From a virus (lineage: Duplodnaviria; Caudoviricetes), in IMG/VR virus record IMGVR_UViG_3300029288_000001, positions 1 to 64,000 of that record: a stretch of 64,000 nucleotides of DNA; one strand, written 5' to 3'. The notes below the pieces were generated by a model. It was not told the origin of the DNA and made no database searches. It saw only the letters and a list, made by a program, of their open reading frames with translations. The first letter of the stretch is position 1, and every line of letters starts with the position of its first letter. Shown here in pieces: positions 28,849 to 61,021 of this stretch. Made by a program: the position numbers and the translations under genes.

Positions 28849-29097
28849 TTATTTTTCCTCTATACCATATTTGTTTTTCCCATACCAGCGGGATGTTTTC
28901 TGCCAATCTACCGTGTGGTAAAAAGGCATGATCTCGTCCTTAACGGTTTCGATTATTCCTTCCTTCGTTAACGCGGTAAGGTGCTTGATCGTTTTCTTCT
29001 TGCGCCACCCTAGAAAACCTGCGTAGCCTTCCATCGTGCAGTTGGGATGGATGCTTATCGATTCGTAGAGCCTCCATTCCTTTTCAAAATCCGTCGT
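28849..29097 (-). CDS. Hypothetical protein, ACG start (MTDFEKEWRLY)
   Basis: GAGGGA-CTTTAA-ACG directly after the upstream stop; extends the track ORF by 21 codons. Confidence 0.6.
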   Translation of the reverse strand, partial: TTDFEKEWRLYESISIHPNCTMEGYAGFLGWRKKKTIKHLTALTKEGIIETVKDEIMPFYHTVDWQKTSRWYGKNKYGIEEK

Positions 29098-29378
29098 TTA
29101 AAGTCCCTCTTTCGATTTAATATACAACGACAAGTACGCTAACGCGATATCTAATTTGGTATCGCCCATATTGTCTACTCTACCCTCCACTAACTCAAGC
29201 ACTTGGAGCGGCGTCCATTCCTTCGCCATGCGTTCCTCCCAATGATCGGGGCAGAGCGGTATACTCTCGTTCTTTTCTTGGTCTCTAAACCAGAGTAGCT
29301 CGTCCTCTCCTTTATCGTAGTCGTATTTCATTAATACATCTAGGACTTTTCCACATTTCGCGCATTTTTCCTTCTCTA

Positions 29379-29822
29379 TCATTTCTTTTCCTCCTTATTT
29401 AAGGATTTTTCCAATTTCCATTGTAATTCTAAAGTGCTCGTCATAAACCCGCATTTTGGACACTCGCGCGGATATTCGTTGTGCATGAAACAACCGTCCT
29501 CGTGGTTTTGATAGAACTTATGGTTACACAATGGGCATTTCATTTTATGGGTAGTACGGCTTACTCCTCCAGGGTGGAACGAGGGATCGGGAAAGCCGTA
29601 GTCGATCGTTTCAAGTCGCTTTTTATTAACTTCTTTTAATAAATCTAATAATTCTTGTCGAGTAAAAGTAGTGCCACAACGCTTACAATACGCCATCGAG
29701 TTGTTTTCGTAAAGGATTAACTCGTTAGAAGCGCATTTGGGACACACTTCGTATCTCTTGTCTCTTTCGTAGACTTCGTCCGTATTTCTCAATAAAAAAA
29801 GGTCGTCTCCAAATCCAAACAT
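29379..29822 (-). CDS. Double zinc-ribbon protein
   Basis: CPKC..CKRC and CPLC..CPKC. Confidence 0.65.
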   Translation of the reverse strand: MFGFGDDLFLLRNTDEVYERDKRYEVCPKCASNELILYENNSMAYCKRCGTTFTRQELLDLLKEVNKKRLETIDYGFPDPSFHPGGVSRTTHKMKCPLCNHKFYQNHEDGCFMHNEYPRECPKCGFMTSTLELQWKLEKSLNKEEKK

Positions 29823-30516
29823 TATTTAACCCCCTTCTTTTTGATCGTGTTCCACGACATGCCCGCGCTATCGCCTATGAGGTCGTTCGACAGCGCTTCG
29901 ATGTAGCCGTTGGTCGATTCTTCGTTCCTCTCGTCGAATACGTAATACGAGTGCGTGTGCGTCGTGGAAATTATATTCGCGTTACTGTCTAGCTGCTCCA
30001 CGATCAAGGTATAAGGCTTTTCCCAGTCTGGCTGGATAATAATCCTCTTGTTCTCGTAGAGCATGTCGATGATCTTCTCGAACGCTTTTCGTAGCCGCTC
30101 TAACTTTACCTTCTCTTCCATTTTATTTACCATAAATCGTGCCACAACTCCTTTAGCTCTTCTGTGAGGCGTTGTCGTTTCTTGTTGTCGAAAATAGCGA
30201 GGTCTATATTACCATCCGTTTGGGTGTCCAGTAAGATCATCGTATAATCCTCTTTTTCGTAGGTCCATTTCGTTTGATTGGTATAAGTAAATACTTCCGA
30301 GTCGAAGATGTCCATTCCATATTCTATGGATTCCTCCGTGATTGGACCGTGACTATACCCCACTCTATCGTCGCCATCGATTAGATCCCATACATACTCG
30401 CGATAGTCTACTACCGCGAAAGTCCTCCAACCCTCGCGATATCCAAAATAATCGTAGACTTCTTGGAGTATGTTGAAATACTTATCTATTAGATCGGTCA
30501 TCGGATCGGATCTCCT

Positions 30517-31254
30517 CTACGATTGAAACAGATTCCCTACGTTGATCGCGCCAAGCCTCATCTTGAGGTAGATCTCTTGAATACGATACGGAATGTTTTC
30601 TAGGGGCGTGTATTCTTCTTTTTTAAGCCCCATGTTGTTGTAGATTATGTTGATCTTAGGGCTACCGTCGGCTCCAGGGTTGACGAAACAATAAAATCCC
30701 TTGTATCCCTCCAACTCCAGCGACCTCATCTTAGCTAACTGCTGCGGCGTGAAGTTACGCTGGTAATAGTTTCCTTGCACGGTTTTTTCCGCTTTCTTCA
30801 TCGGCTCGTCCACGATCTCTAGTTGGTATTGTTTAAACATCGTCCACGCGTATTTCTTTCCCTCTTCAATGTTCCCGTCACCCATGCGATAAAAAGTAGC
30901 TTCCCCAAGAAAACTATTGCACCACTTCTCGAAGAACGGCTTAACCTCGCGCGGGGGAGAATCGTCTTCCTCGGTAGCGCGAATCTGGTCTCTTAGTTTA
31001 ACGATCGCCTCCCAATTGAGAACTAAGTAGTCTCCGTTGTTCTTGAGGTCGATCACGCGATCCTTGGTCACGGCGTTACTATGAAGGTATAACAGGTATT
31101 TTAAATGGGCGAGCGCGGTCTGTTGTTTCTTGTCCAGCACGCCCGTCATGTTAGTCATCATCTTCACGATGTCGCACGCCTTCACGCCCGAGATCTCTTC
31201 CAAGAGCTGGCGTTTCGATTTCTTCTTATTCAATATTTCTTGATTCTTACTCAT
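30517..31254 (-). CDS. Hypothetical protein, first gene after an AT-rich gap
   Basis: 245-aa ORF; no family recognised. Confidence 0.6.
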   Translation of the reverse strand: MSKNQEILNKKKSKRQLLEEISGVKACDIVKMMTNMTGVLDKKQQTALAHLKYLLYLHSNAVTKDRVIDLKNNGDYLVLNWEAIVKLRDQIRATEEDDSPPREVKPFFEKWCNSFLGEATFYRMGDGNIEEGKKYAWTMFKQYQLEIVDEPMKKAEKTVQGNYYQRNFTPQQLAKMRSLELEGYKGFYCFVNPGADGSPKINIIYNNMGLKKEEYTPLENIPYRIQEIYLKMRLGAINVGNLFQS

Positions 31255-31617
31255 ATATTATGATCTAAATGTATTTTTTATTTTAATATTATTATTATTC
31301 GTTTAATGTTTTATCTTCTTTTTCTTTATAGAACCTTCCGTGGCGAGGGCTAGACCACGACGATCTCCACCTATACCCACAGAAATGGCAACAAGACTCG
31401 TAATAGTGATCGAATTCCAGATCGTAGTCGCTGGAACTCTCCATAGTTCGGTTATTACATTCTGGACAGTCCGATAAGTTCCTTAACCCATAGTCCATCT
31501 GGATTTCCTTAACTCTATCTTTATCGTCGTTCATACTATTTTCTTATTCTTTCTTTTATTTTAAACTATTTATTATTCTATTAATTATAAAAAAAAATAA
31601 TTGTTTTTATTATTTGT

Positions 31618-32397
31618 CTATTCCATTTTCTTTAACAACCACTTCTCGATAATGAAACTCTGAGCCTCCTTCTTGTTCGCGTCGAACTGAGAGTGGATTT
31701 TACTCTTGGGAAGCCACACATCCTTACCGTTGTACGATACTTTGATCGCTTTATCGGTAGAGCCGTTGATCGCAGCTTTAATTACCGCTGTGTCCTCGAG
31801 AGCGGGTTCGTCGTGCACATTGTCGCTCGAGTCGTGTAATAGCTCGGTGTCTGGTGCGGAATCTAACCCTAGATCGGCAAGATCAGTGTCGCTTGGCACG
31901 GGTTCGTCTTCGTTAAGAGTTGGCTCTACGACTTCCTCGTGCGCGAGTTCCTCTGCCTTTCCTTCGCTTATCTTGGGTTGTTGGTCTGACACGGTTGATT
32001 GAGCGATCTTCTCTTCGTAGCAGTGGTTAAACAGATCGTAACATACTTGGATCTGGTAATGCGTTAAATAGATCTTATACCCTCCTACGTTAAACCATAC
32101 GATGTCCGTTTTCTTTTCGCCTTTATCGGCGCCCCACGATACATTGATCGGGGTTTTCTTTTCCTTATACGCGTGCACGGTCTTGAACTCCTTCGCTCCT
32201 TTTCCGAGCACTTCGTTTATGGCGGCGATCTCTTCGAGACCTATCTTTACCACCAATCCCTCTTTGTTCGAGGGCTTCTCCCATCCACCGTCCTGTTTCT
32301 TCTTCAAAAAAGTTAGATTCATGAACGGCTCGGTGGCGTTCGATCGGATAAGCATACCCGTCGATTTTATGAAAAACCTATAGTTGTGACTGTTCGT
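31618..32397 (-). CDS. Putative nucleic-acid-binding protein with an acidic linker; ACG start (MNSHNYRFFIKSTGMLI)
   Basis: KKKQDGGWEKPSNKEG...LEEI, and C-terminal TDKAIKV..WLPKSKI..IEKWLL. Resembles proteins I recall from Lokiarchaeia (unverified). ACG lies 1 nt after the upstream TAA. Confidence 0.55.
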   Translation of the reverse strand, partial: TNSHNYRFFIKSTGMLIRSNATEPFMNLTFLKKKQDGGWEKPSNKEGLVVKIGLEEIAAINEVLGKGAKEFKTVHAYKEKKTPINVSWGADKGEKKTDIVWFNVGGYKIYLTHYQIQVCYDLFNHCYEEKIAQSTVSDQQPKISEGKAEELAHEEVVEPTLNEDEPVPSDTDLADLGLDSAPDTELLHDSSDNVHDEPALEDTAVIKAAINGSTDKAIKVSYNGKDVWLPKSKIHSQFDANKKEAQSFIIEKWLLKKME

Positions 32398-32670
32398 ATT
32401 ACTTCATATCCTCCTTAATTTTTGATTTTATATCTTCAATAATAAAGTCTATTTTAACTCCTTTTTCGTAGCGGAACGATTGGATCATACTATACCTATA
32501 GAGTAAATACGCGGTAAAGCCTCCGTCCATTCTAAGATAATGGTGGATTTGATACCCGTTCCCGAGCTGGATATATTCCTTCCTAGGACCCGTTACGGCA
32601 CGCCTACTTATAGGTCGGTTGAGCCTCGTCATTTCGCTTTTAAACCGCTTCGATTCTATTTTTTTTCGCG

Positions 32671-33048
32671 TTATATCTCATCACTATTATTGTTGTTATT
32701 TTTTAGATAATTATCTAAATTACTAGGTTTTTTCGTTGATACATAAATCGTTGATATATAAAAAAAATGAATTTTATAGTTCGCATAGTCTACGTATTGT
32801 GTGTTAACTTGATAATAAACCTTAATATCATTATGTAATGTACGATATTCTATGTAATCAATGATAGGAGACTGTTGATTTTTTAGATCGAGTTTCCACT
32901 TCTTATCGTCGGGCACATAGAGCTCGTCCATGACCATATCCTTAGGGTCGATCTCGTAGTAGTCCCCTCTTCCTCCGTGCTCGATCCTTACATGGTCTCT
33001 AGCGATCATTACACCGCTTTCCTTATCGTAAAGAGGTTTTTCTACCAT
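32671..33048 (-). CDS. Hypothetical phage-type protein
   Basis: RIEHGGRGDYYEI...YIEYRT..IKVYYQ..VDYANYK motif. Confidence 0.6.
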   Translation of the reverse strand: MVEKPLYDKESGVMIARDHVRIEHGGRGDYYEIDPKDMVMDELYVPDDKKWKLDLKNQQSPIIDYIEYRTLHNDIKVYYQVNTQYVDYANYKIHFFYISTIYVSTKKPSNLDNYLKNNNNNSDEI

Positions 33049-33457
33049 GCGTCGTCCTCGTCCTCCTCCTCGTCGTCAGGGTCGTAGGAACTTTCGTGGT
33101 CTTCGTATTCGTGCCCTCGGATCTTCGTCAACTCCTTCTTGACCTCCTCGTAGGTGACTTCTTTATCCTTCCCAAAAACCTTCTGTAATTGATCGTATTC
33201 TTCCTTTTTCATATACCACTTACAGATCTTGTCCGATCTCGTGGAATGGTAGAACTTGGGAAACTTCGCGGGCATCGCCTCGTTCGAGCAGTAGCCTTTC
33301 CAGATCCAGAAACTAAAACATCCCAGCTCTTCGTCGTAGGCGTATTCCTCTTCGGTCCAAAAGACCGTAGGAAAGAAAAACACGCAGCTCTGGCACGCTT
33401 TCACCACTCTATTACAGTGCGCGTCCCAATCGATCGATTTCTTCTCGGACTCGTTAC

Positions 33458-34093
33458 TCATATGTCCACCTCGCGAATTAACTTCGCTTTTTCCCATTTA
33501 CTTTTCCAATGAATGTCGGTCTGAACGTGATTAGCTCTTACGCACTTCGCGATGTTATCGTTAAACTCGGACACTGGAAACGCAGCTTTATTCCTTACTA
33601 CATACCCTTCGCAGACGCTTCCGTAGAGACTCTCTCTTGGAATATGCATTTCGTATCTACTATCAATATCTCCGAGAGTAATAATCGGTGCCGTGTAGAG
33701 CTTGAGCTCGTTGGTTATATCGTACATCTCGTCCGTAGATACGAACACATCGCCTCGCCGTATCGCGAACACGTAGAAGTAAGAAGTTAGCTTCTCGTAG
33801 GTGATCGAGTGGATGGCATACATATTTTCCCCGTAAATGATCATATCGTCAGGGAGGTCGTATTGGAACTTCTCTGCCATTTTGATTATATAAGTCTGCC
33901 ACGGTTTTCCATAGGCGGCAGCGTTATCCGACCGCGCGTGAATATAGTTCTTTGCGATTGCGGTATTCTCTCCGTCGAGTTTTTCCGTGAAGACAAGAGA
34001 TTTATCCTCGAAACATTTTACATTTTCCTTCCGTTTATCGTCGCGGCTTAACTGCTGAGACCACGGCAGGTGCTCTATGCTTGGGAACTTCAT
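33458..34093 (-). CDS. RNA ligase-family nucleotidyltransferase (short, Rnl2-like adenylation domain)
   Basis: KFPSIEHLPWS, TEKLDGEN (motif I), GENMYAIHSITY, EGYVVR, AKCVRANHVQTD. Confidence 0.9.
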   Translation of the reverse strand: MKFPSIEHLPWSQQLSRDDKRKENVKCFEDKSLVFTEKLDGENTAIAKNYIHARSDNAAAYGKPWQTYIIKMAEKFQYDLPDDMIIYGENMYAIHSITYEKLTSYFYVFAIRRGDVFVSTDEMYDITNELKLYTAPIITLGDIDSRYEMHIPRESLYGSVCEGYVVRNKAAFPVSEFNDNIAKCVRANHVQTDIHWKSKWEKAKLIREVDI

Positions 34094-34314
34094 TTAATAT
34101 CATCTTTTTCTTTTAGTTTAATTAAATAATCTAAATACCACTTCGCTTTCTTCAAATCCTCTAGTTCTCTTCCTTTAAACTTAGCGCGGAGAATATACGT
34201 TACTACATTGCCTTCGTAGAATCCTAGCTTATACGCGTTTATAACATCCACGGCTTCTATCCCTCCTTGGTTGTAGTGCGAGGGGTGGTTAACATTATCG
34301 TTCTTTTCGCTCAT
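34090..34314 (-). CDS. DUF3310-family protein
   Basis: DNVNHPSHY..GGIEAVD...GNVVTYILRA..KG..LEDLKKAKWYL. Confidence 0.9.
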   Translation of the reverse strand: MSEKNDNVNHPSHYNQGGIEAVDVINAYKLGFYEGNVVTYILRAKFKGRELEDLKKAKWYLDYLIKLKEKDDIK

Positions 34315-34912
34315 GGATACAATCTCCTACTCGTTATTATGTGAAAACACTCCAAACAAAGAAGATCGTTGAACATCTCGTCTCTTATCAAATCTACGCC
34401 TTCGACGCCTTCTTTACCACATCGTTGGCATTTTAATTTATTCTTTTCGCTCATCCAAAACATCCCCTTTTGTGCTTTTTAGTAAACATCGCTTTCTTAT
34501 TGATCTCTGGATCGCTCTTACCGATTATATTTAACACGTCCTGCTGGCGCTTTTTATCGCGTTTAAAATTCTCTAACTCCTCTTCGATTAATTCTCCTAT
34601 ACTTTTCTTCTCGGTCATTCTTTCACTCACTTTTTCTTAGTTCTTTAATTTTTATTCCCGCTTCTATTTCCTTCTTAATATATTCGTCTAACACGCCAGA
34701 AGCACGCGAGATAACAGTATCGAACCCGTCGCGCACGCTTCCCAAATAAGTTTTTAAATGGTTGTAATGCTCTTCCGTAGTAGGTTCGTGGCTATCGTAA
34801 TTCTCTAACGCGTTAAATGCGATGCACTTTCCTACGATAATTCCTTTTCTCTTACCTTTCTTATAAATTTTCATTTCTTTTTGGAATTTCTCCCATTCTT
34901 CGCTTCTATTTT

Positions 34913-35083
34913 TCATTTCCTTACCTCCTCCATCCACTTTTCGTATTGGTCCTTTCCCGTAGTGCACAATTGGTCGTAAGTCATATATTCTAAGTGGTGC
35001 TCTTGGACATTGTTGTTATTCTCGATGATCTCTCGGTCGTCAAACATAAAAATCGTTTTATCTTTCAGTTTTATAATCTTCGT
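34913..35083 (-). CDS. Small hypothetical protein, probable ACG start (MKIIKLKDK)
   Basis: AAGGCGATAAGA-ACG. Avoids a 119-nt overlap with the upstream Cys-rich gene. Confidence 0.45.
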   Translation of the reverse strand, partial: TKIIKLKDKTIFMFDDREIIENNNNVQEHHLEYMTYDQLCTTGKDQYEKWMEEVRK

Positions 35084-35549
35084 TCTTATCGCCTTTTTTA
35101 TAATGTAGTTCGCACGGTTTATGATAATAAGGACAGGTATCGCAGGTTTCGTGCTCGTTGCAAGTCCATTTCCCATACTTACCGATCAATTCCAACATTT
35201 CGTCTAGAACATCCTTATTTCTCTTCCTTCCATCTTCAATACTATCCCTCTCTATGATTCTTTTAACGGAATTAAATGCCGCGATTTTTCCTTTCACGAA
35301 TTCTCGCTCTAAATCCTTCGTATCGAATAGTTCTATAAATCCATCGATGAGAGAGAGTAAGTTTTTCTTAAATAGTTGTAAGCTCATTCTTACTCGTCTC
35401 GTTTTCTTTTATAGGTTGGAATCCATAATATTTCAACATTACATTAAACATATCTATTAATTCTGCGCGGGTTTTATCCTCGAAAAGCGTGCAGTCTGTA
35501 TCGTCCTTTTTTTTAGTGTGAAGACAGCCCTTGCACATGTTTTTATCGT

Positions 35550-37961: not shown

Positions 37962-38225
37962 TCATTCGATCAGCTCTTTTATATGTTTCTCGAAGTTTTC
38001 TACGATCGCTTTTTGTGTGGGACGAACCATCTTACCTTTCTTATCGTAAAGACTACGGAATATGGCACTATTCTTCATTGAAGTCCACTCGTCTAGTAAA
38101 TACTCCGCTTTTATTTTTAATTTGATCGATTCTAACGACTTGGAGTCCGTTCTGGGAGGTCTCGGCTCGCGTGGTTCTTTTTTCGCTTTCTTCTCTTTAA
38201 ACTCAGGCGGCTTAAATAGACTCGT
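37962..38225 (-). CDS. Basic hypothetical protein (87 aa), ACG start, not in the ORF track
   Basis: GGAGG + 9 nt + ACG AGT CTA TTT (MSLFKPPEF), with an in-frame TAA immediately before. Ends in an ATGA overlap with 37965. Confidence 0.7.
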   Translation of the reverse strand, partial: TSLFKPPEFKEKKAKKEPREPRPPRTDSKSLESIKLKIKAEYLLDEWTSMKNSAIFRSLYDKKGKMVRPTQKAIVENFEKHIKELIE

Positions 38226-38514
38226 TTAACTGCGCCTCCAGATCCGCTAATCCATCCTTTGTTAAGTGTTGATTTAATATTTCAACGAAGCTATTAAACT
38301 TACTCTCGGTATTGAAGTATGTGTCTTTAATCGCGTTTAAGAATTGTATAAGTCCTTTTATTGTTTTTTTATCGTATACGGTGGTAGTATACGATGTGTC
38401 CGATGGTATACCATTGCCTCGATGGAGTTTAATGAAATCTTCCCACTTCGCCTTCTCCGAGGGTGGAACTTTCACTTGAAGGTTTACCAGAGTTTCCTTA
38501 AATAGCTTCTTCGT
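38212..38514 (-). CDS. RHH-like protein, probable ACG start (MKKLFKETLVNLQVKV)
   Basis: GAGGC + 9 nt + ACG. TATA-like TTTAAATA at 38571-38578. Confidence 0.5.
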   Translation of the reverse strand, partial: TKKLFKETLVNLQVKVPPSEKAKWEDFIKLHRGNGIPSDTSYTTTVYDKKTIKGLIQFLNAIKDTYFNTESKFNSFVEILNQHLTKDGLADLEAQLNESI

Positions 38515-38573
38515 TGTTTTATAGCCTCTTATTCTTTGTGGTATACTATGATCTATGTATAGTATACGATTAT

Positions 38574-38858
38574 TTAAAGGTTATTATTAACCTCTTGCTC
38601 GTCGATCTCGTAGTATAAATAGTTAATATTGTGATAAGGAATGGACACGATCTTTTCTACTTCGTCTTTAATGATCTTATTCCTATACTCTTGTTTAAAG
38701 CGCACTACCGCTTGACCCATGCCCAAGTATATCTCTTGAAGATATATGCTATATCCATACGCATTTGGGTGAAATATAAATTGACATTCGTGAGATACTC
38801 CAGTCTTCGTGTCTAGATTTATTTTCTTTATTTTTACCCATTCTCCTACGTAGCTCGT
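38574..38858 (-). CDS. Paralogue of 42969..43337 (94 aa), ACG start, not in the ORF track
   Basis: MSYVGEWVKIKKINLD...YLGMGQAVVRF...IPYHNI matches EEWKEASFINI...YFGSGQAALKI...FPFHEI. In-frame TAA two codons before the ACG. Confidence 0.7.
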   Translation of the reverse strand, partial: TSYVGEWVKIKKINLDTKTGVSHECQFIFHPNAYGYSIYLQEIYLGMGQAVVRFKQEYRNKIIKDEVEKIVSIPYHNINYLYYEIDEQEVNNNL

Positions 38859-41836: not shown

Positions 41837-42100
41837 TCATAATATTATATCACCATTTTTACTATTATATACCACATAAACTTCTTTTTCTATAATTCTA
41901 TCGAACGGAAGCTTATTGTATCTACCATTCCATTTCTTACTGCAACAATAATTAACCGCCTCTCCGTAGGTATAGAACACGAGAAAACGCCTTTTATGAA
42001 TGATAAGATACCATTTATCGAGATTTAATAACATTCCTATGGTATTTTCTATCGAGAATTGGGTCTCCCACTCGTTTACCTCTTCTCTAATTCTTATCGT
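41837..42100 (-). CDS. Hypothetical protein, probable ACG start (MIRIREEVNEW)
   Basis: AGGAG upstream; the extension closes the gap to 42115. Confidence 0.45.
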   Translation of the reverse strand, partial: TIRIREEVNEWETQFSIENTIGMLLNLDKWYLIIHKRRFLVFYTYGEAVNYCCSKKWNGRYNKLPFDRIIEKEVYVVYNSKNGDIIL

Positions 42101-45968: not shown

Positions 45969-46184
45969 TTATTTAAATTCTTCTTGCACTTCTATTACGA
46001 ATGTATACACTCCTCTAGATAAACTCATGGTAGATATGTGCGTGGTAAGCTCCTCGAGCGTTTTAAAACTCATGTCAAAATGCACGGGTATGTCCATATA
46101 TTTGGAATCGTTCTTGTCATACGCCTGTTTTAACGGACTATTCAAGTTCGCGTTGTAAAATCCATATAATTTGTAATATGTCGT
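45969..46184 (-). CDS. Hypothetical protein (71 aa), ACG start, not in the ORF track
   Basis: GGAGAGGA-TTAATA-ACG ACA TAT TAC (MTYYKLYGFY), 2 nt after the upstream stop; fills the gap. Confidence 0.6.
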   Translation of the reverse strand, partial: TTYYKLYGFYNANLNSPLKQAYDKNDSKYMDIPVHFDMSFKTLEELTTHISTMSLSRGVYTFVIEVQEEFK

Positions 46185-46186
46185 TA

Positions 46187-46453
46187 TTAATCCTCTCCTT
46201 TCGCGATCGCTTCTTTATTGGCGATATATCTCGGGTAATCGGGTAGTTCGCTAACGATCTTTAACTTAGTTCTCCCATCGTGACCGTGTAGGATTCTTAC
46301 CGTTTCTAGACAATCTGCGATCGTGGTAGTGGCAATATCAGATAACCATCTATACGCCACTGTGCCATCGGAAAACACTATACCTTCCGCTATGATACCA
46401 GTGCCGCTAATTCCGCTTACATCTTCAAACCGTTCTAATATGAAATACTTCGT
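46187..46453 (-). CDS. Conserved phage-type protein (EDVSGxSGTG family), ACG start
   Basis: (M)KYFILERFEDVSGISGTGIIAEGIVFSDGTVAYRW...HGHDGRT. The conserved N-terminal half lies upstream of the first GTG; GAGGT SD. Confidence 0.8.
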   Translation of the reverse strand, partial: TKYFILERFEDVSGISGTGIIAEGIVFSDGTVAYRWLSDIATTTIADCLETVRILHGHDGRTKLKIVSELPDYPRYIANKEAIAKGED

Positions 46454-47474: not shown

Positions 47475-47654
47475 TTATAACCATTTATCCAATCCGACTC
47501 CTTCTTTCTTTTCTTTATCCTTTAACGGGCAATAATATTTTCTATTACACAGCTTCTTCATATCAACGATCAATGGATACGAGCAGTAGGCGTAGTTTCT
47601 TAATCCTCCGCACGATTCTATCGTTTCTATGTGCCGATACGGACAGTCGGGCGT
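47475..47654 (-). CDS. Small Cys-rich protein (59 aa), ACG start in a TAACG overlap, not in the ORF track
   Basis: MPDCPYRH...C...CSYP...C...CPL...GLDKWL; GGAGAAGGA upstream. Confidence 0.65.
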   Translation of the reverse strand, partial: TPDCPYRHIETIESCGGLRNYAYCSYPLIVDMKKLCNRKYYCPLKDKEKKEGVGLDKWL

Positions 47655-47934: not shown

Positions 47935-48690
47935 TTATTTTATCTCCTCATCCGGTTCTTTTTCTTCTTTTTCTTCCAATTCGATCTCCTCTAACAAAGG
48001 AGGTCCGTTAAAACTATAATTGATCGTCTGGATAAACTTCTTGACGGATTCGTCTCCAAACTTCTCGATGTCTTTAAGCTCCTTCTCGGGAGCGTTTACC
48101 ATCTTCTTAAGCGTGTCGAACTTCTTTAACGCGTTCCTCGCTCCCGTTTCGATGATACGTAGACCAGACGCGAGCACCATGTTGACCGCGCGGTCTTCCG
48201 TCTTGACTTTAAGCGTGACGGGCTTAATGATTTTATCGTCGTAGCTCTTTTCAATAATTCTACTCGCTAAGTATACGGCGGCTTTCTTAGCTGGCATGGG
48301 AATACACGGTATTCTATACCGCCCGTTAATAGAACCTATTGCCCCCATGATCGCGTTTATGTTAATGTGCTCTTCTGCGGCAAGACTATCCCAACTGCCA
48401 TAGACGATGTAAAAGAACTTAATAGTTGGATTAAGGTGCATGTTATAAAGCTGGTTACGGAAGCGTTCTCCTCTATCTACCGTTAACGCGCTCCATAAAT
48501 CCTTGAAACTCTTTAACTCGATCACGACATCCTTGTATTGGATATCTCCTATTTCCAGTTTTTTCTTTTTCGCTAACGGAAAATACTGTAACACTAGATC
48601 GAGCGTGGGTTGATAGTCCTTCGTGCGAGCCTCGGGCTCGGAGGTGTCCACCCATACTTCGAATTCCTTTGGATCTACTTTTTTTACCGT
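47935..48690 (-). CDS. ERCC4/XPF-family nuclease with HhH; probable ACG start (MVKKVDPKEFEVWVDTSE)
   Basis: VDTSE, LEIGDI, VVIELKSFKDL..R..NQ, C-terminal HhH (ELKDIEKFG). The first beta-strand lies upstream of the GTG. Confidence 0.8.
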   Translation of the reverse strand, partial: TVKKVDPKEFEVWVDTSEPEARTKDYQPTLDLVLQYFPLAKKKKLEIGDIQYKDVVIELKSFKDLWSALTVDRGERFRNQLYNMHLNPTIKFFYIVYGSWDSLAAEEHININAIMGAIGSINGRYRIPCIPMPAKKAAVYLASRIIEKSYDDKIIKPVTLKVKTEDRAVNMVLASGLRIIETGARNALKKFDTLKKMVNAPEKELKDIEKFGDESVKKFIQTINYSFNGPPLLEEIELEEKEEKEPDEEIK

Positions 48691-50203: not shown

Positions 50204-50500
50204 ACGATCAAAGTTGAAGATGTAATTCTATATTTCGAAAAAAATGTGCTCGTTAAAAACGATCTTTTAAGAGAAAATAAAGACCTCGTTATCCACGCGA
50301 TTCGCGACGTCCACGAATATATCGTGCGGAACTTTGGTATGATGCCTCCTATACGGAGTATAATCGCTCTAGCGCTGTATAAATCCACGACCTTCGCTAA
50401 ATACGAGATCGCAGGTATGGTCGGAATCACCCTTACTACCTTTAATAAATACATACGAAAGCTCCCTATTTCTTTTTCCGACTCCTTGGAGACCGTTTAG
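50204..50500 (+). CDS. TFB/TFIIB C-terminal cyclin-repeat-like HTH protein; probable ACG start (MIKVEDVILY)
   Basis: P.IRSIIALALY....KYEIAGMVGITLTTFNKYIRKL resembles the TFB cyclin/HTH region. In-frame TGA TTT TTT ACG. Confidence 0.5.
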   Translation, partial: TIKVEDVILYFEKNVLVKNDLLRENKDLVIHAIRDVHEYIVRNFGMMPPIRSIIALALYKSTTFAKYEIAGMVGITLTTFNKYIRKLPISFSDSLETV

Positions 50501-53415: not shown

Positions 53416-54111
53416 CCCCCGAGCTTCTCTAACCTTTCTTCCCGCTCTTTATAGGTCTCGATGGGGTTTCTCTCGATTATATATTTCAACCAACATTCGT
53501 AGCACAGTGATTTATTAAATAACTTCCATGGATCGTCTTTTTCTTTTATTTCTTTTCCACATTTATCACATTTGCTCACGGGTCGCCCGCCTCCTTCTTT
53601 TCTGCTAACAATCGAGCTATACCTATAATGAGAACCATAAGAAATAACCCGTGAGATACTCCACATAAATACCATAGAAATTCGTTAATGGTCACGGTCG
53701 TTTCTAGTCGCCCTCCTCGTCTTCTATATCTTCGTATTCAATACAATCTACGCATAAATATCCGTCGTCGCAGAGAGCATAACTTTCTTTTAGGATGTTT
53801 ATTACATCACCACATTCTACGCATTTCCGCTTTCCGTTAATAACCCAAGTAATTTTCTTTTTGGTCATTTAGTCGCCCCCTTCCACCATCTCTTTTTTAT
53901 CCATATTGCATTTTTATAGCTCACTCTGTTCACCCCCGAGCTTCTCTTGTATATGATCTAAATACATTCTCATAAATATCATAATATCCTGTAATAGATC
54001 ACAATGATCGCATCCAATCGCCTTTTCTAAATATCGATCTTCAAACGATTTCCATTTCAAGATAAAAAAAGAATCTTCTGGTTTCATTTCTGTTCGCCCC
54101 CGAGCTTCTCT
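53416..54111. repeat. Three copies of a 15-nt gene-junction repeat CCCCCGAGCTTCTCT
   Basis: At 53416-53430, 53933-53947 and 54097-54111; each encodes EKLGG near a gene end. Confidence 0.8.
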
Positions 54112-55646
54112 TTTAGTTTCTCGTAGAACTCGTTATAATCGTCGGAACGCGCAAGAACGAGCGAATCTAAGCGTTCGATGTCCTTAGCGACCTCCGCCTT
54201 CATTATGAAGTACTCGCAAGGTTCGCATAATTTACACGGAATATGATTACGATCTGCATTTCTAGGACATTTAGCGATCTTTTCTTCGAGAGAGGGTTCC
54301 GCAACGAAACACGAACATTTATTGTCGTTAACTGGCTTACAACCTTCGAACCGTTTCTTACATCCATTACAAATTTCGTGAGAGGGTTCCGCCGCCGCGC
54401 CCTTCTCTGCTTTCACTTTCTTACACGACTCACAATTACATAAGAGTCCGTGTGCCATGTAAGTCGCAACATCGTCAGAAGAGGGTTCCTTCGGTTTCGA
54501 GTCGGTCTCTTTCTCGTATTCACCACAATTCTTAGAATTAATTGTACTCCACGCGCTCCATGTGTAGGAACATCCGTTCCTTCTTCGACAAGTCAAGCAA
54601 GAGGTCTCGCTCGTGGGTTCCTTCGGTTTCGAGTCGTGTTTGCAACTATCTAAATTATAACACCATTCATCGTTCTCGATGTAAGCTTTATGGCACTCTT
54701 CACAAACCGATTTCTCGCCCGAAGTCTTTAAAAACGATCTAACCTCAAACGGCAATTTAACGCCCGCTTCTGCGCTTCGATCTACTAAACAGATCACGAA
54801 TTTCGGTTGTTTTCCTACTCGTTTGATACAGTCCTCTACGCTCTTTCCCGTAGTGATCACATCGTCGTAGATTATATAATCGCATCCTCTTAGATCAAAG
54901 TTCCAAGTGTCATCTTTAGGAGAATAATACCCATCAATACAGTCAGTTAAGGTGATTGGATGAATCGATTGGATTGCGAATAGTTTTAAACCGTTCCGTA
55001 ATTCTAATATTTTATTCGTTATAATACGAGCGTCCTTGTTTTCTGGCTTGTCTAATAGATCGAACTCGTATTTTCCGTTCAATTTAACTCCGTGCGTGGA
55101 TGTAAACTCTCCTGCTACGAAGTATTTTGAAAAATCAATTAGAGACGAAATTGGAATTGGCGGTTCCATATTCCACTCCGCGAGTCGTTCTACCGATTTC
55201 TCGCGCGAAGGCTCCTTCCCTTCGCAATGCTCTTTGTAATATTTAATAAAGTCTTGATTAACGGATTCGTGTTTATCTACGGTATCTCTGATGATAGAGA
55301 GCGCCCCGCGTAGAACCTTTATTTCTTTATCTTGTTTGTTAAGACGGTTAAATATGTTATCGTAATCTGCCTTAAAGATTAAGACTAAACGATTGTTCGA
55401 AGCACCAACGGGACAAAACCTTTTATTGGCAAGCTCGTCGGGAAGAGATTTAAGCTGGGCTTCCAGCTTCTCAATTGATTGAAACGCTTTTCCAAACGAA
55501 TCTATATAATTTTGCTCGATGGCTCGGATGTCTTTATTCTCTAATTCAGAGACCTTTTCCTCCAGCGCCTTGATACCTAATTGATCTCGGAACAATTCCG
55601 CGCTTTCCTTTTCGATGTAAAATGTGGTCTTCTTAGAATCATTCAT
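54084..55646 (-). CDS. Mosaic protein: coiled coil + orotate-PRTase-like domain + Cys-rich cassettes
   Basis: GEFTSTHG, YIIYDDVITTGKSV (PRPP-binding loop), CLVDRS; EPS/EPT-linked Cys/His modules. Confidence 0.75.
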   Translation of the reverse strand: MNDSKKTTFYIEKESAELFRDQLGIKALEEKVSELENKDIRAIEQNYIDSFGKAFQSIEKLEAQLKSLPDELANKRFCPVGASNNRLVLIFKADYDNIFNRLNKQDKEIKVLRGALSIIRDTVDKHESVNQDFIKYYKEHCEGKEPSREKSVERLAEWNMEPPIPISSLIDFSKYFVAGEFTSTHGVKLNGKYEFDLLDKPENKDARIITNKILELRNGLKLFAIQSIHPITLTDCIDGYYSPKDDTWNFDLRGCDYIIYDDVITTGKSVEDCIKRVGKQPKFVICLVDRSAEAGVKLPFEVRSFLKTSGEKSVCEECHKAYIENDEWCYNLDSCKHDSKPKEPTSETSCLTCRRRNGCSYTWSAWSTINSKNCGEYEKETDSKPKEPSSDDVATYMAHGLLCNCESCKKVKAEKGAAAEPSHEICNGCKKRFEGCKPVNDNKCSCFVAEPSLEEKIAKCPRNADRNHIPCKLCEPCEYFIMKAEVAKDIERLDSLVLARSDDYNEFYEKLKEKLGGEQK

Positions 55647-56724
55647 TTCTTTTTCGTCTCCTTTATTTTCTTTCTTTTAATCCTACACACCCAATCTTCG
55701 TCGCAGTAGCTCCTATATCCGCATCTATCGCACGGAATAAACAACGGAAATAAGTTCTTCTTAGCCCATTCCTGCCCGTGTGGCAGCGGTTCTTTCTTCT
55801 CGGTCATTTCTTCTTTTCCTCATCTTTATATAATTTTTTTCCTAATTCTCGATTAATTTTACTGTCAAAAATATCTAGGATCGGGTGTAGTTTCCCTTTC
55901 TGGCGCAGATCGTTAATATAATCGTCAATAACATCGTCTATATTAGGTTCTCCCGCTAATCTCCGTATTCTTCGCGCTCTTACTTCGTCGAACTCTTTTC
56001 CCAAGAACTTTTTACTCATTCCTTCTCGCCTACTCGTATTATGTATTTACAGATCGGACATTGATATAATCTAACTCCAAACCACATCTCTCCTTGATCG
56101 TCTCTTGACAATGGTATTAAGTCTTTATCGCATTTATGACAATATAATCCAATTGTAATAATCTTCTCGATCGAAAAGCTCATTCCTACCACTCCCAATC
56201 GTCAAATACTGATCGTTTTTTTGGAGGGTCATTAAACCCTTCCATATCTTGTATGATCTCATCTAGAATATCCTCAACGGTTGTCGCCTTCTTGCACTTA
56301 TCGCACCAATAGATCCATTTCTTTTCGTTATCTTTAAATCTTCCTCGATGCACTGTACCTCCGCAAGGACATGGTTTTTTTTGATCGAATAAATCGTTAT
56401 AATTCTCGGTCATTCCTTAACCTCCTCTCTCTAAGTCCATATCCGCCCAATCGGCTTCGCACTCGTAATAATCGTCCGTTTCCTTGAAATTCTTGCATTT
56501 AAACTTTCGCTTTACCATCCATAATGGCATGGTATACGCGCTGCACCAATCGGTGGAGTCTGGACCTTCTGCGTGGCTGCACCGCATGCATAACTGGGCG
56601 CTGTTGTGCCACCTACCGTAGGCTTCTTGCTCGTCTTCTTCATACCTCCTCTGGCATTCGCTACACCACTCGCCCGGCTTGTCCACTCCGTTCTTTCCGC
56701 AATTATCGCATTCAAAGGACATGT

Positions 56725-57024
56725 TCACACCTTCTCGTTTAATTTCCATATTTCTATGATGTTCTTCTTTTCGAACTGGACGCGATCTCCATAGTGTCCA
56801 TAATCGGAGGAGTTTATTGTTCTATTGGCTAACAATCCTTCTATCTTATCGCCGTTTATTTGTGCGACGCTTATCCATAGTCTCTCGCCGTATTTCCCGT
56901 CGTCGTCGGTAAGGATTATCTTAACGAGATCGGCTACTCTAACGGCGTCCTTTTCTTCCTTGGAAGGTATCCAGAAGGTATCTGGGTACTTCCTATGATT
57001 TTCTTCTTCATCTACTATTTTCGT
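56725..57024 (-). CDS. DUF2314/YegJ-like protein (99 aa), ACG start, not in the ORF track
   Basis: (M)KIVDEEENHRKYPDTFWIPSKEEK..VRVADLVKII...GERLWISV...IEGLLAN...GDRVQFEKKNIIEI. No canonical start until a late TTG; preceded by in-frame TAA TAA CCT. Confidence 0.8.
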   Translation of the reverse strand, partial: TKIVDEEENHRKYPDTFWIPSKEEKDAVRVADLVKIILTDDDGKYGERLWISVAQINGDKIEGLLANRTINSSDYGHYGDRVQFEKKNIIEIWKLNEKV

Positions 57025-57608
57025 AGGTTATTATCCCCCCAATAAAAGTTTTCTCATTTCTTCTGGCGTGAGCTCGTTACGAAAGATCTCCTCTCGAATT
57101 AGTCTTATCTCTTCTCTAAGATCGCGGATGATCGCGTTCGATTTGGCTAATTCTCCTTGTAAGCGTTCGTTCTCGAACTTTAATTTTTTATAGGCTAGTT
57201 CCAATTCTTGATATAATCGAATGTTGTTGGAATGGTATTGTTTTGGAGTCATTCGTTCCCCTCCAGATAATCGTCGTAGGTGTCGTTGGAACACTCGCTT
57301 TCGTGCGCGTCCCAACAATCGAAACATAGATCCGCGTCGCAATACTTACAATTATAAGATTTGGAGAGATCCTTTCCGCATTCCGCGCATTTTATAGGCG
57401 GATAATATTTGGTTTTCGCCATTATATTTCACCTCATTCTAAATATAACTTGGTGTAGTAGTCGTCTCCGTTAATACCGTGTTTCTCTAAGAGGTAAGTC
57501 TCTAAATCCAAGAGTATATCGTCTATCACATTGTGGATACCCTTCAAATCAGAAACTTCTTTCTCTTCTTTAAATTCTTCAAACTCTATTTTTATCTTTC
57601 TTACCATT

Positions 57609-57788
57609 CTATATCACTCTTAGTTTCTCTATAATAGTATATAACTTACCCGCTGTTAAATCGTCCACCTTGCCACAGTTTCTTTGGTGCGTGGCGATAA
57701 AGTCCTTAATCACGCATAGCGCGTCTAGCACCAGATCCTGTAGCGTTTCCGTTTTTTCGTTTAACTCGTCTAAACTTAATTCTACCGT
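57609..57788 (-). CDS. Small helical protein (59 aa), ACG start, not in the ORF track
   Basis: GAAGGGA-TAA-AAAA-ACG GTA GAA (MVELSLDEL); fills the gap. Confidence 0.6.
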   Translation of the reverse strand, partial: TVELSLDELNEKTETLQDLVLDALCVIKDFIATHQRNCGKVDDLTAGKLYTIIEKLRVI

Positions 57789-58034
57789 TTTTTTATCCCT
57801 TCTTTTTATAATAATCGTCTATAAAACTAAGAAAACCCTTTATTTTGTTTTTCCACGTCGGTCTTGAAAACACGAGCGCGGTCTTCTCGTCGCTAGGGTC
57901 GTATTCTATGTATTCGAGTTTTCTCCCTCCCGTCGAAGGATCGGTGGTAAGAGTAATAAACGAATCCGATTTTATTATTTCTATTTTTGGCGAGTAGTCT
58001 GGAATGGTATACTCGTTCTCTTTCTTCTCTTCGC

Positions 58035-58169
58035 TCATGCCTTCCACCTCGCTACTATCCACGCCATTAATAAAACTAATAGAAACGCCGCGAGCACGCC
58101 GCACATCGCTCCTATAAACATAACGATCACATCTTCCATGGTAAAACATTCTGTCGCTAGAACGATCGT
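58035..58169 (-). CDS. Small TM protein, probable ACG start
   Basis: GAGGTG + 7 nt + ACG ATC GTT, 1 nt after the upstream TAA; ends in an ATGA overlap. An ATG exists 10 codons in. Confidence 0.5.
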   Translation of the reverse strand, partial: TIVLATECFTMEDVIVMFIGAMCGVLAAFLLVLLMAWIVARWKA

Positions 58170-58629
58170 GTTATACCACCTCGAGCGCTATTAATATGCG
58201 GAGCGCTAACAGCCCGACTAAGAGAATCAAAATTCCTAGAAACATCCATAATCCATACTCTGGCTTACCCGCGCGATAGATCGCTGTGCTGAAATTGACC
58301 CATTGGTGGAGCTGGTCGTGAGTGATCTCCCCCCGCTCGGCTTTTCCTTGCATTTCCACGAACTCGGCGTAGAGCTCTTTTCTTCTCTTATGCATATTCT
58401 TTTCTCTCTTTTAAATTGTTATTTCTTTATTATAAGGTTTTGTTATAATTTGATCGCAGATAGCACATTTTATACTATGCATATTAAAAACCCAGATTTG
58501 TTTATGATTTAAAGATCGCGTTTTACCGCACTTACAAACAATATCGTACTTTCCCGTTTCTTTGTTAAAACATTTTTCTAAATACTCTTTTGTTTCTTGT
58601 TCTTCTTTCGTTAGAATTTGATCGGTCAT

Positions 58630-59370
58630 TTATTCCTCTTCTCCTCCGTTAATAATATCGTCCATTCCCATTTTCTTTAACCTCCATTTAATTAAGAACT
58701 TCTCGAACGGCACTGGGTCGGGCTTCTCGGGCAAGAAAGTATGAGTATACGCCTCGTTAAGCTTGTTCTTCAAGTCCCAGAGCTCTTCCTCCTTGGTAAT
58801 TTCCACCTTCTCGAACATGGGCTTCCCCCACACAAATACGTTGATTCCGAACTTTAACGATCGTCCGATGGTGTTAAGCTTCTTCTTATAAATTAACGAG
58901 TTTCTGTCGATCTCTCTCGTGGGAGCCTTTTCGCCTTTTCTTACCTTTCCCGTGCGCGAGCCCGTGCCAGTTATGAAGTGGTAGATGTTGTGCTCTGCCA
59001 TTCCATTGATCGAGTGAAAGCAGTTCTTCGCAATGGTCTTAATCGCGATCTCTCGTAGCTCGCGCAGCACGGAGCGATATTCGTTTACCACGATCGGAGA
59101 GGTGACCGCCCATAGATAATTTACATTACCCTTAAGGACTTCGCGCACACAGTTTCCTAGATCGCACGATTGCACGTCCGATTCTCGCTCTACGCCGTTG
59201 TAGGTCTCCTTACCCTTATATTCTCGGTTCCGCCTCGTCTGTTGGAGAAGGAAGTCCCTCGAGTCCATAATATAAACCTCGTTGATGTCCAGGTCTGAGG
59301 TCGGTTTTTCCATGCCCCACATATGACTGCCTGTTATAGTTCTAAACGCTAATAAATCGTTCTCTTTCGT
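58630..59370 (-). CDS. Pol-beta-superfamily nucleotidyltransferase (YcgL/Nuc-transf-like); non-AUG start (ACG 59370 or ATA 59373)
   Basis: The RTITGSHMWGMEKPTSDLD signature has its GSH upstream of the first ATG; KGNVNYLWAVTSP; in-frame stop just upstream. Confidence 0.85.
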   Translation of the reverse strand, partial: TKENDLLAFRTITGSHMWGMEKPTSDLDINEVYIMDSRDFLLQQTRRNREYKGKETYNGVERESDVQSCDLGNCVREVLKGNVNYLWAVTSPIVVNEYRSVLRELREIAIKTIAKNCFHSINGMAEHNIYHFITGTGSRTGKVRKGEKAPTREIDRNSLIYKKKLNTIGRSLKFGINVFVWGKPMFEKVEITKEEELWDLKNKLNEAYTHTFLPEKPDPVPFEKFLIKWRLKKMGMDDIINGGEEE

Positions 59371-59752
59371 TATTTTTTATCGCTCTCCTTTTTTTGTGAT
59401 ACCATACCCACGAGTAAGATCATGATACAGATCCAATACGCGTCTTCCGAGATGTTGGTAACTCCTACAGCTTTTAACACAATAAACATTATTTCTATTA
59501 TTAACAACACCCACGCGCCAGCTTCGCTCATTTTTTTTTCATTCTCCTTTCTTTATTCTGGAAACCCATAATAATGGGGTTTTTTCAACTCTATTTTTTC
59601 TAATATAATATAAGAACTAGGAGATGTCCACTCCACTTTCAATTTATACTTCCCGCATAATTGGCAGTATCTAACTTCCGTGCGATCGTCTGGGAACTCC
59701 ACCGCATCTATATTTCCTCCGCACAATGGACAGACATCTAACTCGTCTTCTT

Positions 59753-60193
59753 TCATTTTACTCCCATCAGCTCGTCTCTTACTTTCATTAACAGTTTTCC
59801 GAGCATGTCCTTTCCTTTAACCCCCCAGTATAGGTCCGTAGGCGAATTCTCGTGCAATCTCGCGGGATAGGTCGCGATTAGCTTCGCTTTAAGGTCGGGG
59901 TTCTGGGAAAACTTCGCTCTAAGTCCTTCTAACATCACGTCGTTTTTCATGGCGTCCCAGTTCTCTTTCATATCCTCTTTTCTAAGATTGTGTCCTACGA
60001 CCATCGCGTAGTAAGGAATAGGCGCATTCTTGAGCCACTCGCTAAGCTCTTTTTTATTGGTCTTCACGGATTGGTAAAACACCTCGTTGCAACTATACTC
60101 TTCGTCGCCAATCTTTTGGATCGCGCGTTCGAAGTTAGAAAAACATCCGTTCTTTTCTTTCCTTAAGTAAAAATATACATCTTCTTCTACCAT
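59753..60193 (-). CDS. NADAR family protein
   Basis: GCFSNF, EVFYQSVK, W...KNDVMLEGLRAKFSQNPDLKAKLIAT, ENSPTDLYWG, LGKLLMKVRDEL. Confidence 0.92.
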   Translation of the reverse strand: MVEEDVYFYLRKEKNGCFSNFERAIQKIGDEEYSCNEVFYQSVKTNKKELSEWLKNAPIPYYAMVVGHNLRKEDMKENWDAMKNDVMLEGLRAKFSQNPDLKAKLIATYPARLHENSPTDLYWGVKGKDMLGKLLMKVRDELMGVK

Positions 60194-60601
60194 TTTTTAT
60201 TCCTCCTTATTTTTTAAGTATAACGAATAATGATCCCGCATAGATCGCTTCCTGAGCGTCTTCCACTTCGCGATCACTTTCTTTAACCGTTCTACTTTAT
60301 CGTTGTAAGTGCCCTCTGTCGCCCAGTCTAAGTCTCCTACTATATCGGCGATCACGGACGCGACGAAGCCTTTCCTGTCCGAGTCCTTATACTCTTTAGT
60401 AATGTCTTTGTAATTATACGACCACTCGGTATTGGAGGGGTGTAGACAAGGTTTTATGGTATTACCCTTGATCGTGTGATTAGATGTTTCTAAGCTATAT
60501 TTCTTCCACGGCATTTTTACTCCTCGTCTTTTTTAAGTATGTTTTTTATTATTTAAATAATTTGATTAATAGAATAATATAAAAAAAAATTGAGTTAAGA
60601 G

Positions 60602-61021
60602 TTATGTTTTATACGGTAGTTGTAAATCGGCGCTGGTAATCAATTTACTGAGGTCGATCGTCTCGCGCACGGATTTTATCTGTCCATCGGGTAGTTTTAT
60701 CAACAGCTCGGTAAGGAACTCCTCTTCGATCGTGCGAATGCCAAAGTCTACGCTGGTAAATCGTGCTTTAAGATAATACAGTAACGCGCGGTAAAGCTGT
60801 TGTTTGTAGTTCTCTTGGGTCGGTAGCTTGAATTGTAGTCGGAACCCTCGTTCCACGCCGTTGATCTCTAAGATAAACTCGATCACGCCAGTCTCCGTGT
60901 ATTCCGTAGTCCGTATTCCTTTAAGGTTGTATTTCTGTAAGAACTTGCGGATTTCGCCCTGCGTGTTCGCTACGTCTACTTTAGACCTGTAATACGGTAG
61001 CTCGGAAAACTTCTTCGTCGT
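60602..61021 (-). CDS. Conserved phage-type hypothetical protein, ACG start (MTKKFSELPYY)
   Basis: A 45-codon open extension (SKVDVANTQGEIRKFLQKY) upstream of the GTG, with no canonical start; GAGGCGA SD. Confidence 0.7.
   Translation of the reverse strand, partial: TTKKFSELPYYRSKVDVANTQGEIRKFLQKYNLKGIRTTEYTETGVIEFILEINGVERGFRLQFKLPTQENYKQQLYRALLYYLKARFTSVDFGIRTIEEEFLTELLIKLPDGQIKSVRETIDLSKLITSADLQLPYKT

Follow-up and report, generated by a model that had tools for sequence, protein, structure and literature searches.

ACG codons probably serve as the real start sites of small, closely packed genes in the window analysed here, the first 64 kb (64,000 nucleotides) of virus record IMGVR_UViG_3300029288_000001 (Duplodnaviria; Caudoviricetes), and would do so by near-cognate initiation made frequent by a pressure turning TG into CG; from the sequence evidence assembled below, a probability of roughly 0.6 is assigned to this reading. 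The record is a complete genome of 224,826 bp with direct terminal repeats, and the virus is treated here as a jumbo virus of an Asgard (Promethearchaeota, Loki-type) archaeon, since its MCM helicase is closest to Asgard MCMs and its genome carries intron-bearing tRNAs. The full-length MCM shares 55–57% identity with MCMs from metagenome-assembled genomes of Promethearchaeota (Asgard), including Loki-, Hermod-, Hod- and Thorarchaeota.

A sequence-only reading of the window had listed 17 ACG codons as regular initiators and had anticipated that standard gene callers would shorten or miss the genes they open; homologues, enrichment of ACG behind Shine-Dalgarno (SD) motifs, purifying selection and shortened public protein calls now lend support to this proposal. 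All 17 coordinates hold ACG on the claimed strand, and the three spacings that had been quoted (for the sites at 38225, 46453 and 58169) are exact. In line with the claim that the codons are SD-led gene heads, 15 or 16 of the 17 follow an SD motif and open a real gene. ACG 32671 had been missed in that list, and three or four of its sites are uncertain. The genes are as follows (ORF, open reading frame; dG, free-energy change; PWM, position-weight-matrix score; gap, distance to the stop of the upstream gene).

28849–29097, minus strand: 82-aa gene; tandem ACG ACG at 29097 with an in-frame TAA immediately before, gap 0 nt; SD AGAGGG, next canonical ATG 21 codons downstream.
31618–32397, minus strand: 259-aa gene; SD AAGGAGG (dG −10), gap 1 nt, ATG 14 codons downstream.
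32399–32671, minus strand: 90-aa gene, absent from the sequence-only list; TAACG overlap with the upstream gene, PWM 4.4, ATG 13 codons downstream.
34913–35083, minus strand: 56-aa ORF, weak candidate; SD-like motif AAGGCGAT; outside the codon-model gene set; in-frame ATG upstream at 35176 and another ATG 12 codons downstream.
37962–38225, minus strand: 87-aa gene; GGAGG-9 nt-ACG, in-frame TAA immediately before, 14-nt overlap with the upstream gene; next ATG 49 codons downstream, leader log-odds +10.2.
38212–38514, minus strand: 100-aa gene, moderate candidate; SD AGAGGC, gap 59 nt, GTG without SD 13 codons downstream.
38574–38858, minus strand: 94-aa gene; SD GGAGAAGGCGAT; next canonical codon a TTG 44 codons downstream, leader log-odds +9.8.
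41837–42100, minus strand: 87-aa gene; SD TAGGAGCGCGAT (dG −13), gap 14 nt, ATG 22 codons downstream.
45969–46184, minus strand: 71-aa gene; SD AAGGAGAGG (dG −11.6), gap 2 nt, TTG 13 codons downstream.
46187–46453, minus strand: 88-aa gene; GAGGT-10 nt-ACG; GTG 25 codons downstream, leader log-odds +6.2.
47475–47654, minus strand: 59-aa gene; TAACG overlap with the upstream stop; SD GGAGAAGG; TTG 27 codons downstream.
47935–48690, minus strand: 251-aa ERCC4-domain gene, moderate or weak candidate; GGTG about 12 nt upstream, GTG 13 codons downstream.
50204–50500, plus strand: 98-aa gene, moderate or weak candidate and the lone plus-strand gene; only GTGAT upstream, GTG 14 codons downstream.
56725–57024, minus strand: 99-aa DUF2314 gene; ORF opening 1 codon before the ACG; SD GGGGGGAT.
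57609–57788, minus strand: 59-aa gene; PWM 7.8, the top of the set; gap 4 nt, GTG 19 codons downstream.
58035–58169, minus strand: 44-aa hydrophobic membrane protein gene; GAGGTG-7 nt-ACG, gap 1 nt.
58630–59370, minus strand: 246-aa RlaP-like nucleotidyltransferase gene; TAACG overlap with the upstream stop; ORF opening 2 codons before the ACG.
60602–61021, minus strand: 139-aa gene; tandem ACG ACG; SD GAGGCGAT; first canonical GTG at 60886.

The claim that ACG starts turn apparent gaps into well-packed genes was borne out, junction gaps of 31–195 nt shrinking to about 0–14 nt. ACG starts put the distance to the upstream stop at −26 to +79 nt, with a median of about 2; for ATG genes the distance to the stop of the upstream gene has a median of 12 nt (quartiles 0–84), and canonical-only starts for the listed ORFs would give mostly 31–195 nt (10 nt for 35083). 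Several junctions read TAACG, the ACG counterpart of the TAATG stop-start overlap. A gene model based on codon usage and blind to start codons, which comprised 460 genes covering 90% of the genome, independently chose 15 of the 17 listed ORFs. In 16 of the 17, no in-frame ATG, GTG or TTG occurs from the ORF-opening stop to the ACG; the first canonical codon follows 10–63 codons after the ACG, the coding log-odds over this distance are positive in nearly all cases, and the downstream canonical codons are mostly without an SD. At 50204–50500 the coding log-odds are +12.9 for the plus-strand ORF versus −0.96 for the overlapping minus-strand ORF, and the Pfam ERCC4 match of the 48690 gene begins at residue 42, which is compatible with the ACG and the GTG start alike. 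The 44-aa ORF from ACG 58169 ends exactly at ATG 58038 of the next gene, and the overlapping frame is non-coding until 58038. A 125-codon ORF listed at 57793–58170 of the window (minus strand) scores as non-coding over its first 40 or so codons; it is probably not one gene, the real gene being one of 81 aa from ATG 58038 behind GAGGTGG. A further ACG at 19711 (plus strand) was considered as a start and rejected, having an in-frame TTG directly upstream.

The use of ACG extends beyond the window. A start-site matrix was trained on 212 unambiguous ATG genes and all open frames of the genome were scanned with a score threshold of at least 4. Sites passing it were found at 18 of 1389 ACG codons, compared with 7 of 3160 for ACA, ACC and ACT together (odds ratio 5.9, p = 2 × 10−5). 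GTG (2/890) and TTG (2/981) were not enriched, and therefore the virus uses essentially ATG and ACG. In the same scan ATA reached 14/2167 against 3/1846 for ATC and 4/1919 for ATT; it was not enriched in a test at the level of gene leaders (9/118). In that test, restricted to leaders of at least 8 codons before the first canonical start, a good ribosome-binding site stood before 27 of 100 ACGs, as against about 7% for every other codon. Both tests thus found the enrichment over background at SD spacing by which the sequence-only reading had suggested that its proposal be checked. Among the long-leader genes, the best ribosome-binding position belonged to ACG in 18, the runner-up codon having 9. 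Taking the leader test, the window list and the junction cases together, about 30–40 of roughly 450 genes in the whole genome are ACG-started, and these are spread genome-wide; about 350 genes read ATG, and 99 end in TGA. In length the ACG genes do not fall significantly below the ATG genes, the medians being 94 and 118 aa (p = 0.12), which lends no support to a restriction of ACG to a special class of genes. Scanning all leader codons by the energy of their duplex with the anti-SD gave no discrimination because the coding DNA is purine-rich; the position matrix and the gene-level tests were used in its place. An altered host anti-SD matching GGCGAT was also considered and dismissed, since the ATG genes show the ordinary GGAGGTGA without enrichment of GGCGA (1.17 times expectation) and the 16S rRNA of the Asgard genome MK-D1 ends in GGATCACCTCCA.

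Homologues place the initiator methionine at or near the ACG, a check that the sequence-only reading had called for. In six homologues of the 139-aa protein (46–64% identity) it lies within 1–2 codons of ACG 61021/61018, and the 45 residues that precede the first canonical GTG in the viral protein include many invariant columns. In the RlaP family the N-terminal motif LxLFxTxxGSHMW is nearly invariant; in the window it lies upstream of the first ATG (59322), which is itself the M within the motif. The Pfam match of the RlaP-like protein runs from residue 7, and the methionine of 17 aligned homologues falls 0–10 residues before the motif that follows ACG 59370. Pfam DUF2314 covers residues 16–91 of the 57024 product, the first canonical codon of which (a TTG) is codon 64. 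For a gene beyond the window, at genome position 140664, alignment with homologues begins at residue 2, and the public call begins at residue 47. Between the upstream in-frame stop and the conserved N-terminus there is no canonical start in the 57024, 59370 and 61021 genes; ORF structure alone gives the same result in 13 more genes, and 35083 is the gene that departs from it. The predicted truncation of public calls was likewise seen, with 230 of 246 aa retained for the RlaP-like protein (P0001) and 94 of 139 aa for the product of the 61021 gene (P0147).

An independent view of the same start is provided by L011, a 1.7-kb Logan contig from a separate run and the sole close relative obtained, through a protein search. 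Its protein P0002 is 75% identical to the RlaP-like protein, and the P0002 gene call is shortened at the same internal methionine as the viral one. The orthologue's DNA reads TGA ATT AAA ACG behind GGTGA, with no usable canonical start, and a second ORF on the contig is also ACG-headed. Between the two RlaP-like orthologues the synonymous divergence (dS) is about 1.7 and the ratio of non-synonymous to synonymous divergence (dN/dS) is 0.095, and therefore the ACG-headed gene has been under long purifying selection, as the sequence-only reading would require of a functional gene. Such lasting constraint on a gene with ACG at its head speaks against pseudogenes, and also against an isolated error of assembly.

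What the sequence-only reading had missed is why ACG in particular is used, namely a genome-wide shift from TpG to CpG. Over the whole genome the observed-to-expected ratio (rho) is 1.43 for CpG and 0.75 for TpG/CpA, and the most depleted triplet is TGA/TCA (0.63 after dinucleotide correction). At codon boundaries NNT|GAN occurs 847 times versus 2472 expected (0.34) and NNC|GAN 3663 times versus 2346 expected (1.56); xAT|G, xCT|G and xGT|G stand at about 0.6 and xAC|G and xGC|G at 1.4–1.65 of expectation, and C|A boundaries are likewise avoided. The shift is the same or stronger in intergenic DNA (CpG 1.57, TpG 0.69) and uniform along the genome; since it is present there, it is a property of the DNA and not of codon choice. 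L011 has the same shift (CpG 1.32, TpG 0.74), which is absent from more distant viral relatives (GC content 0.29) and from every Asgard locus examined. Two such relatives, the large viruses L012 and L014 (contigs of 88 and 116 kb, GC 0.29), yielded no ACG-start candidates in 20 kb each, so that the ACG trait is not general to the viral group.

ATG contains TpG, and therefore the same force turns ATG into ACG. The base after the start codon is A in 23 of 31 ACG starts and in 94 of 212 ATG starts (p = 0.002), a bias which fits the preference of the shift for TGA. The ribosome-binding region contains GCGA in 7 of 31 ACG genes versus 7 of 212 ATG genes (p = 5 × 10−4), and some leaders read GGCGAT in place of the SD motif GGTGAT. 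At neutral sites before G, C makes up about 68% of pyrimidines, and ACG makes up only about 8–10% of starts; therefore selection still favours ATG, though not absolutely. The shift may stem from biased repair, from modification of the DNA, or from the avoidance of a host nuclease or deaminase preferring TCA/TGA.

That such codons would be tolerated is suggested by the host lineage, in which the start regions of ATPase subunit genes were compared across 61 genomes of the Asgard phylum. For A-type ATPase subunit C, ACG followed by AGY stands at the aligned start in all six Loki-type genomes (GC 0.23–0.26), and in three of them a stop lies upstream in the same frame, leaving no canonical codon to start from, as in GGTGACAAATAA-ACG. 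In the same AT-rich clade, subunit D starts with ATG in one genome, with TTG in MK-D1 and with ATA, ATT or ATC in five others, two of which have an in-frame stop 2 codons upstream and GGTG at SD distance. ACG was found as the start of AtpD in none of 50 Asgard genomes, and ATA/ATT/ATC starts were confined to the Loki-type clade. These ATPase starts are as follows.

Loci L187–L192 and L128, L131–L135: ATPase start regions in Asgard genomes G013, G024, G035, G045, G054 and G062; subunit C with ACG in six, subunit D with ATA/ATT/ATC behind GGTG(A) in five.

A comparable arrangement was seen on L147, a Loki-like, resolvase-bearing element (GC 0.28), where a 309-codon ORF at 11645–12574 (minus strand) opens at ATA; this codon adjoins the preceding stop and has GAGGTG 7 nt before it, and the gene caller retained only the last 166 aa of the ORF. 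From the AtpC, AtpD and L147 starts it follows that near-cognate SD-led starts belong to the host lineage itself and depend neither on the virus nor on CpG content. Relaxed initiation fidelity of the host, one of the mechanisms that the sequence-only reading had offered, gains support from the ACG starts of AtpC and the ATA/ATT/ATC starts of AtpD.

In the mechanism proposed here, pairing of the SD 5–10 nt upstream would place the small ribosomal subunit of the host, and the ordinary initiator Met-tRNA (anticodon CAU) would accept ACG with a mismatch at the middle base, presumably yielding less protein than ATG. The genome-wide pressure from TpG to CpG, and from CpA to CpG on the other strand, strongest at TGA/TCA, would have replaced ATG by ACG at about 8% of starts, mostly where an A follows, and would have changed some GGTGA motifs to GGCGA. 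The changes to ACG would persist because the host lineage tolerates near-cognate starts, and ACG would prevail over other near-cognate codons because the lineage of the virus is under this pressure.

Several points weigh against this account. That proteins begin at ACG, and with which residue, we infer from the DNA. For 35083, 48690, 50204 and perhaps 38514, a canonical codon 12–14 codons downstream, or upstream, could serve instead. Many of the ACG starts abut an upstream stop, and ACG could be tolerated because ribosomes that have just terminated reinitiate there, and not through free SD-led initiation. The Asgard genomes with ACG, ATA or ATT starts have a GC content of 0.23–0.26 and no CpG excess, unlike the virus. 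Finally, neither a C5 methyltransferase (PF00145) nor Vsr (PF03852), which might have accounted for the drift, is present in the viral genome. In Escherichia coli, very-short-patch repair by Dcm/Vsr biases the repair of T:G mismatches to C:G in methylated contexts. The drift of the virus resembles that system in losing TG/CA and gaining CG words on both strands and in non-coding DNA; it differs in proceeding without these two enzymes and in being CpG-general with a preference for TGA/TCA, with no single methylation site.

The nearest competitor, which we hold to be unlikely, is that the ACGs are decayed ATG starts, the genes now being translated from downstream canonical codons as shorter proteins or being lost. 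The compositional shift would explain the change of ATG to ACG without any function, most of the ACG genes are small ORFans, and a few do have a canonical codon 10–14 codons downstream. Against decay, four genes keep conserved N-terminal residues upstream of every canonical codon, the ORFs are open with positive coding scores in their leaders, and an SD is mostly missing before the downstream codons; the RlaP-like gene, moreover, has retained its ACG in both lineages across the divergence given above with strong constraint on its protein, and subunit C of the ATPase, an essential host gene, is arranged alike. Misreading of the DNA is the least probable of the alternatives considered; here T in the TG/CA context, or A on the opposite strand, would carry a modification and be read as C/G, and the true codons would be ATG. 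Such a systematic error would give a CpG excess with a matching TpG/CpA deficit, and genes for DNA modification are numerous in the virus and its relatives; nevertheless, where ten Asgard MCMs are invariant the viral protein keeps cysteine at 4 of 4, histidine at 2 of 2 and valine at 10 of 10, and it has no W-to-R, C-to-R or M-to-T changes. The hundreds of genes that read ATG, the 99 TGA stops and the tRNA T-loops, which keep TTCA, point the same way, and the independent assembly of the diverged relative L011 gives the same picture. With MCM, TGA stops and T-loops intact, TG/CA is therefore read correctly where function requires it, and the shift is filtered by selection, as expected of real evolution.

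The sequence-only reading had also put forward dedicated mechanisms: editing of C to U in the mRNA, a CGU-anticodon tRNA of initiator type, or a relaxation of start selection by some factor of the virus. A mechanism of this kind is judged improbable, slightly more so than decay. Editing has some appeal, since in a number of SD motifs C stands where U would pair (GGCGAT for GGTGAT) and a change of C to U before G would repair SD and start codon together. In plant organelles, C-to-U RNA editing creates AUG from ACG, and the virus resembles them in having a genomic ACG at the position of the initiator methionine of homologues; unlike them, it encodes no deaminase of the CDA (PF00383) or DYW (PF14432) type, neither being detected in the genome at E ≤ 1, and we know of no specificity factors of the pentatricopeptide-repeat (PPR) type in archaea. 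CGA is moreover frequent in frame (555 copies), where editing of CG by context alone would create stops. No CGU tRNA was found among the eight tRNAs of the complete 225-kb genome; low-threshold Aragorn predictions of 'tRNA-Thr(CGT)' with 'introns' of 280–915 nt were discarded as mismatched stems inside coding DNA. The exact pattern of a CGU anticodon arm matched in 0 of 61 Asgard genomes, though a CAU control pattern matched in only 19 of the 61 and failed in the Loki-type clade. As to a viral factor, the genome contains no SUI1/aIF1, eIF-1A, aIF2-beta or translational GTPase (GTP_EFTU), the search for aIF2-beta giving only sub-threshold zinc-ribbon matches. A dedicated mechanism is further opposed by the ACG-started host genes, which sit in genomes without this virus.

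Near-cognate initiation favoured by the compositional shift, as preferred here, has partial counterparts in other systems, although no paper on ACG starts in archaea or their viruses was found in the searchable literature. ACG starts are known in eukaryotes and their viruses, for example from VP2 of adeno-associated virus and C' of Sendai virus, where the ordinary initiator Met-tRNA is used with a mismatch at the middle base, in a context-dependent and weaker manner. The same decoding by the ordinary initiator tRNA is proposed for the present virus, which differs from them in two respects: it has SD pairing in operon-like arrays in place of scanning and Kozak context, and about 8% of its genes have no start but ACG, theirs being an alternative start that yields an extra isoform. 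The start-selection machinery of e/aIF1, 1A and 2 is a core common to archaea and eukaryotes (PMC6412873). Ribosome profiling of Haloferax volcanii classed about 30% of putative alternative initiation sites as near-cognate; the sites were discounted there as potential false positives, and the main text does not mention ACG (PMC7261190). They show that near-cognate codons can be used for initiation by archaeal ribosomes, but the Haloferax sites are alternative or internal, whereas ACG is the only start of conserved genes in the virus. The tape-measure gene of mycobacteriophage Corndog has no canonical start and carries ACG where its relatives have ATG; its peptides include some from before the first canonical codon, and ribosome bypass was kept by the authors as an alternative (PMC4351075). 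The likeness to the present virus lies in viral genes without a canonical start and with ACG at the initiator position of relatives, the difference in that Corndog offers one gene in a bacterial phage and the virus dozens of genes with a compositional cause. It is this compositional explanation of ACG starts, by the change of TG to CG, that is new here.

A broader reading, for which the chances seem even, would make ACG a start codon throughout the Asgard archaea and their viruses, decoded by the usual initiator tRNA under a eukaryote-like, relaxed proofreading, with the TG-to-CG drive having replaced about one in twelve starts in this virus while the genes were retained. If this is true, ACG belongs in the start set of these organisms, and non-AUG initiation would predate the eukaryotes. 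To our knowledge, no genetic-code table for prokaryotes lists ACG as a start, and it is not among the codons that gene finders test. Public protein calls of the virus either overlook a gene entirely or lack 16–46 residues at the N-terminus, conserved motifs among them, and the same losses probably occur across Asgard genomes and their viruses. Through the SD-led ACG and AUH starts of the Asgard lineage, the origin of relaxed start selection becomes accessible to tests. A force of CpG gain and TpG loss strong enough to rewrite start codons and ribosome-binding sites may, in addition, reveal a new virus-host interaction.

Apart from L011, no close relative was matched by megablast against phages, by scanning IMG/VR with two single proteins (the RlaP-like one and MCM), or by a scan of JGI metagenomes with a 520-aa neighbour protein. 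A cyanobacterial host had come into consideration from GCGATCGC (HIP1) in one leader and was dismissed, as the genome holds only 15 copies and the MCM and the introns indicate archaea. The related viruses L012 and L014 have a similar early-gene array with RlaP, Thg1, RNA ligase, several DNA methylases, a TAGT-family protein and primases.

Several further features of the genome were recorded. Short palindromes are avoided throughout, with GGCC at 0 copies versus 475 expected, GTCGAC at 0 versus 27 expected, and observed-to-expected ratios of 0.15 for ACGT, 0.16 for CCGG, 0.28 for GTAC and 0.15 for GCGCGC; this looks like evasion of several restriction systems. The over-represented words include CGATCG (5.4-fold), CGCG (3-fold) and GATC (1.9-fold). 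Outside the window, a tRNA cluster at genome positions 144516–145502 (minus strand) comprises Pro, Ile(TAT), Ser(GGA) with a 55-nt intron, Cys, and Leu(TAA) with a 499-nt intron. Aragorn also reports a tRNA-Met(CAT) at 170868–170944 (plus strand) with an 8-bp acceptor stem and an odd D arm; it scores below the Rfam gathering threshold for tRNA and may be degenerate or atypical. A 778-aa ORF at 65985–68321 (minus strand), likewise beyond the window, joins an N6/N4 DNA methylase, a LAGLIDADG-like segment and an Mrr-type restriction endonuclease domain, the segment resembling a homing endonuclease being possibly an intein.

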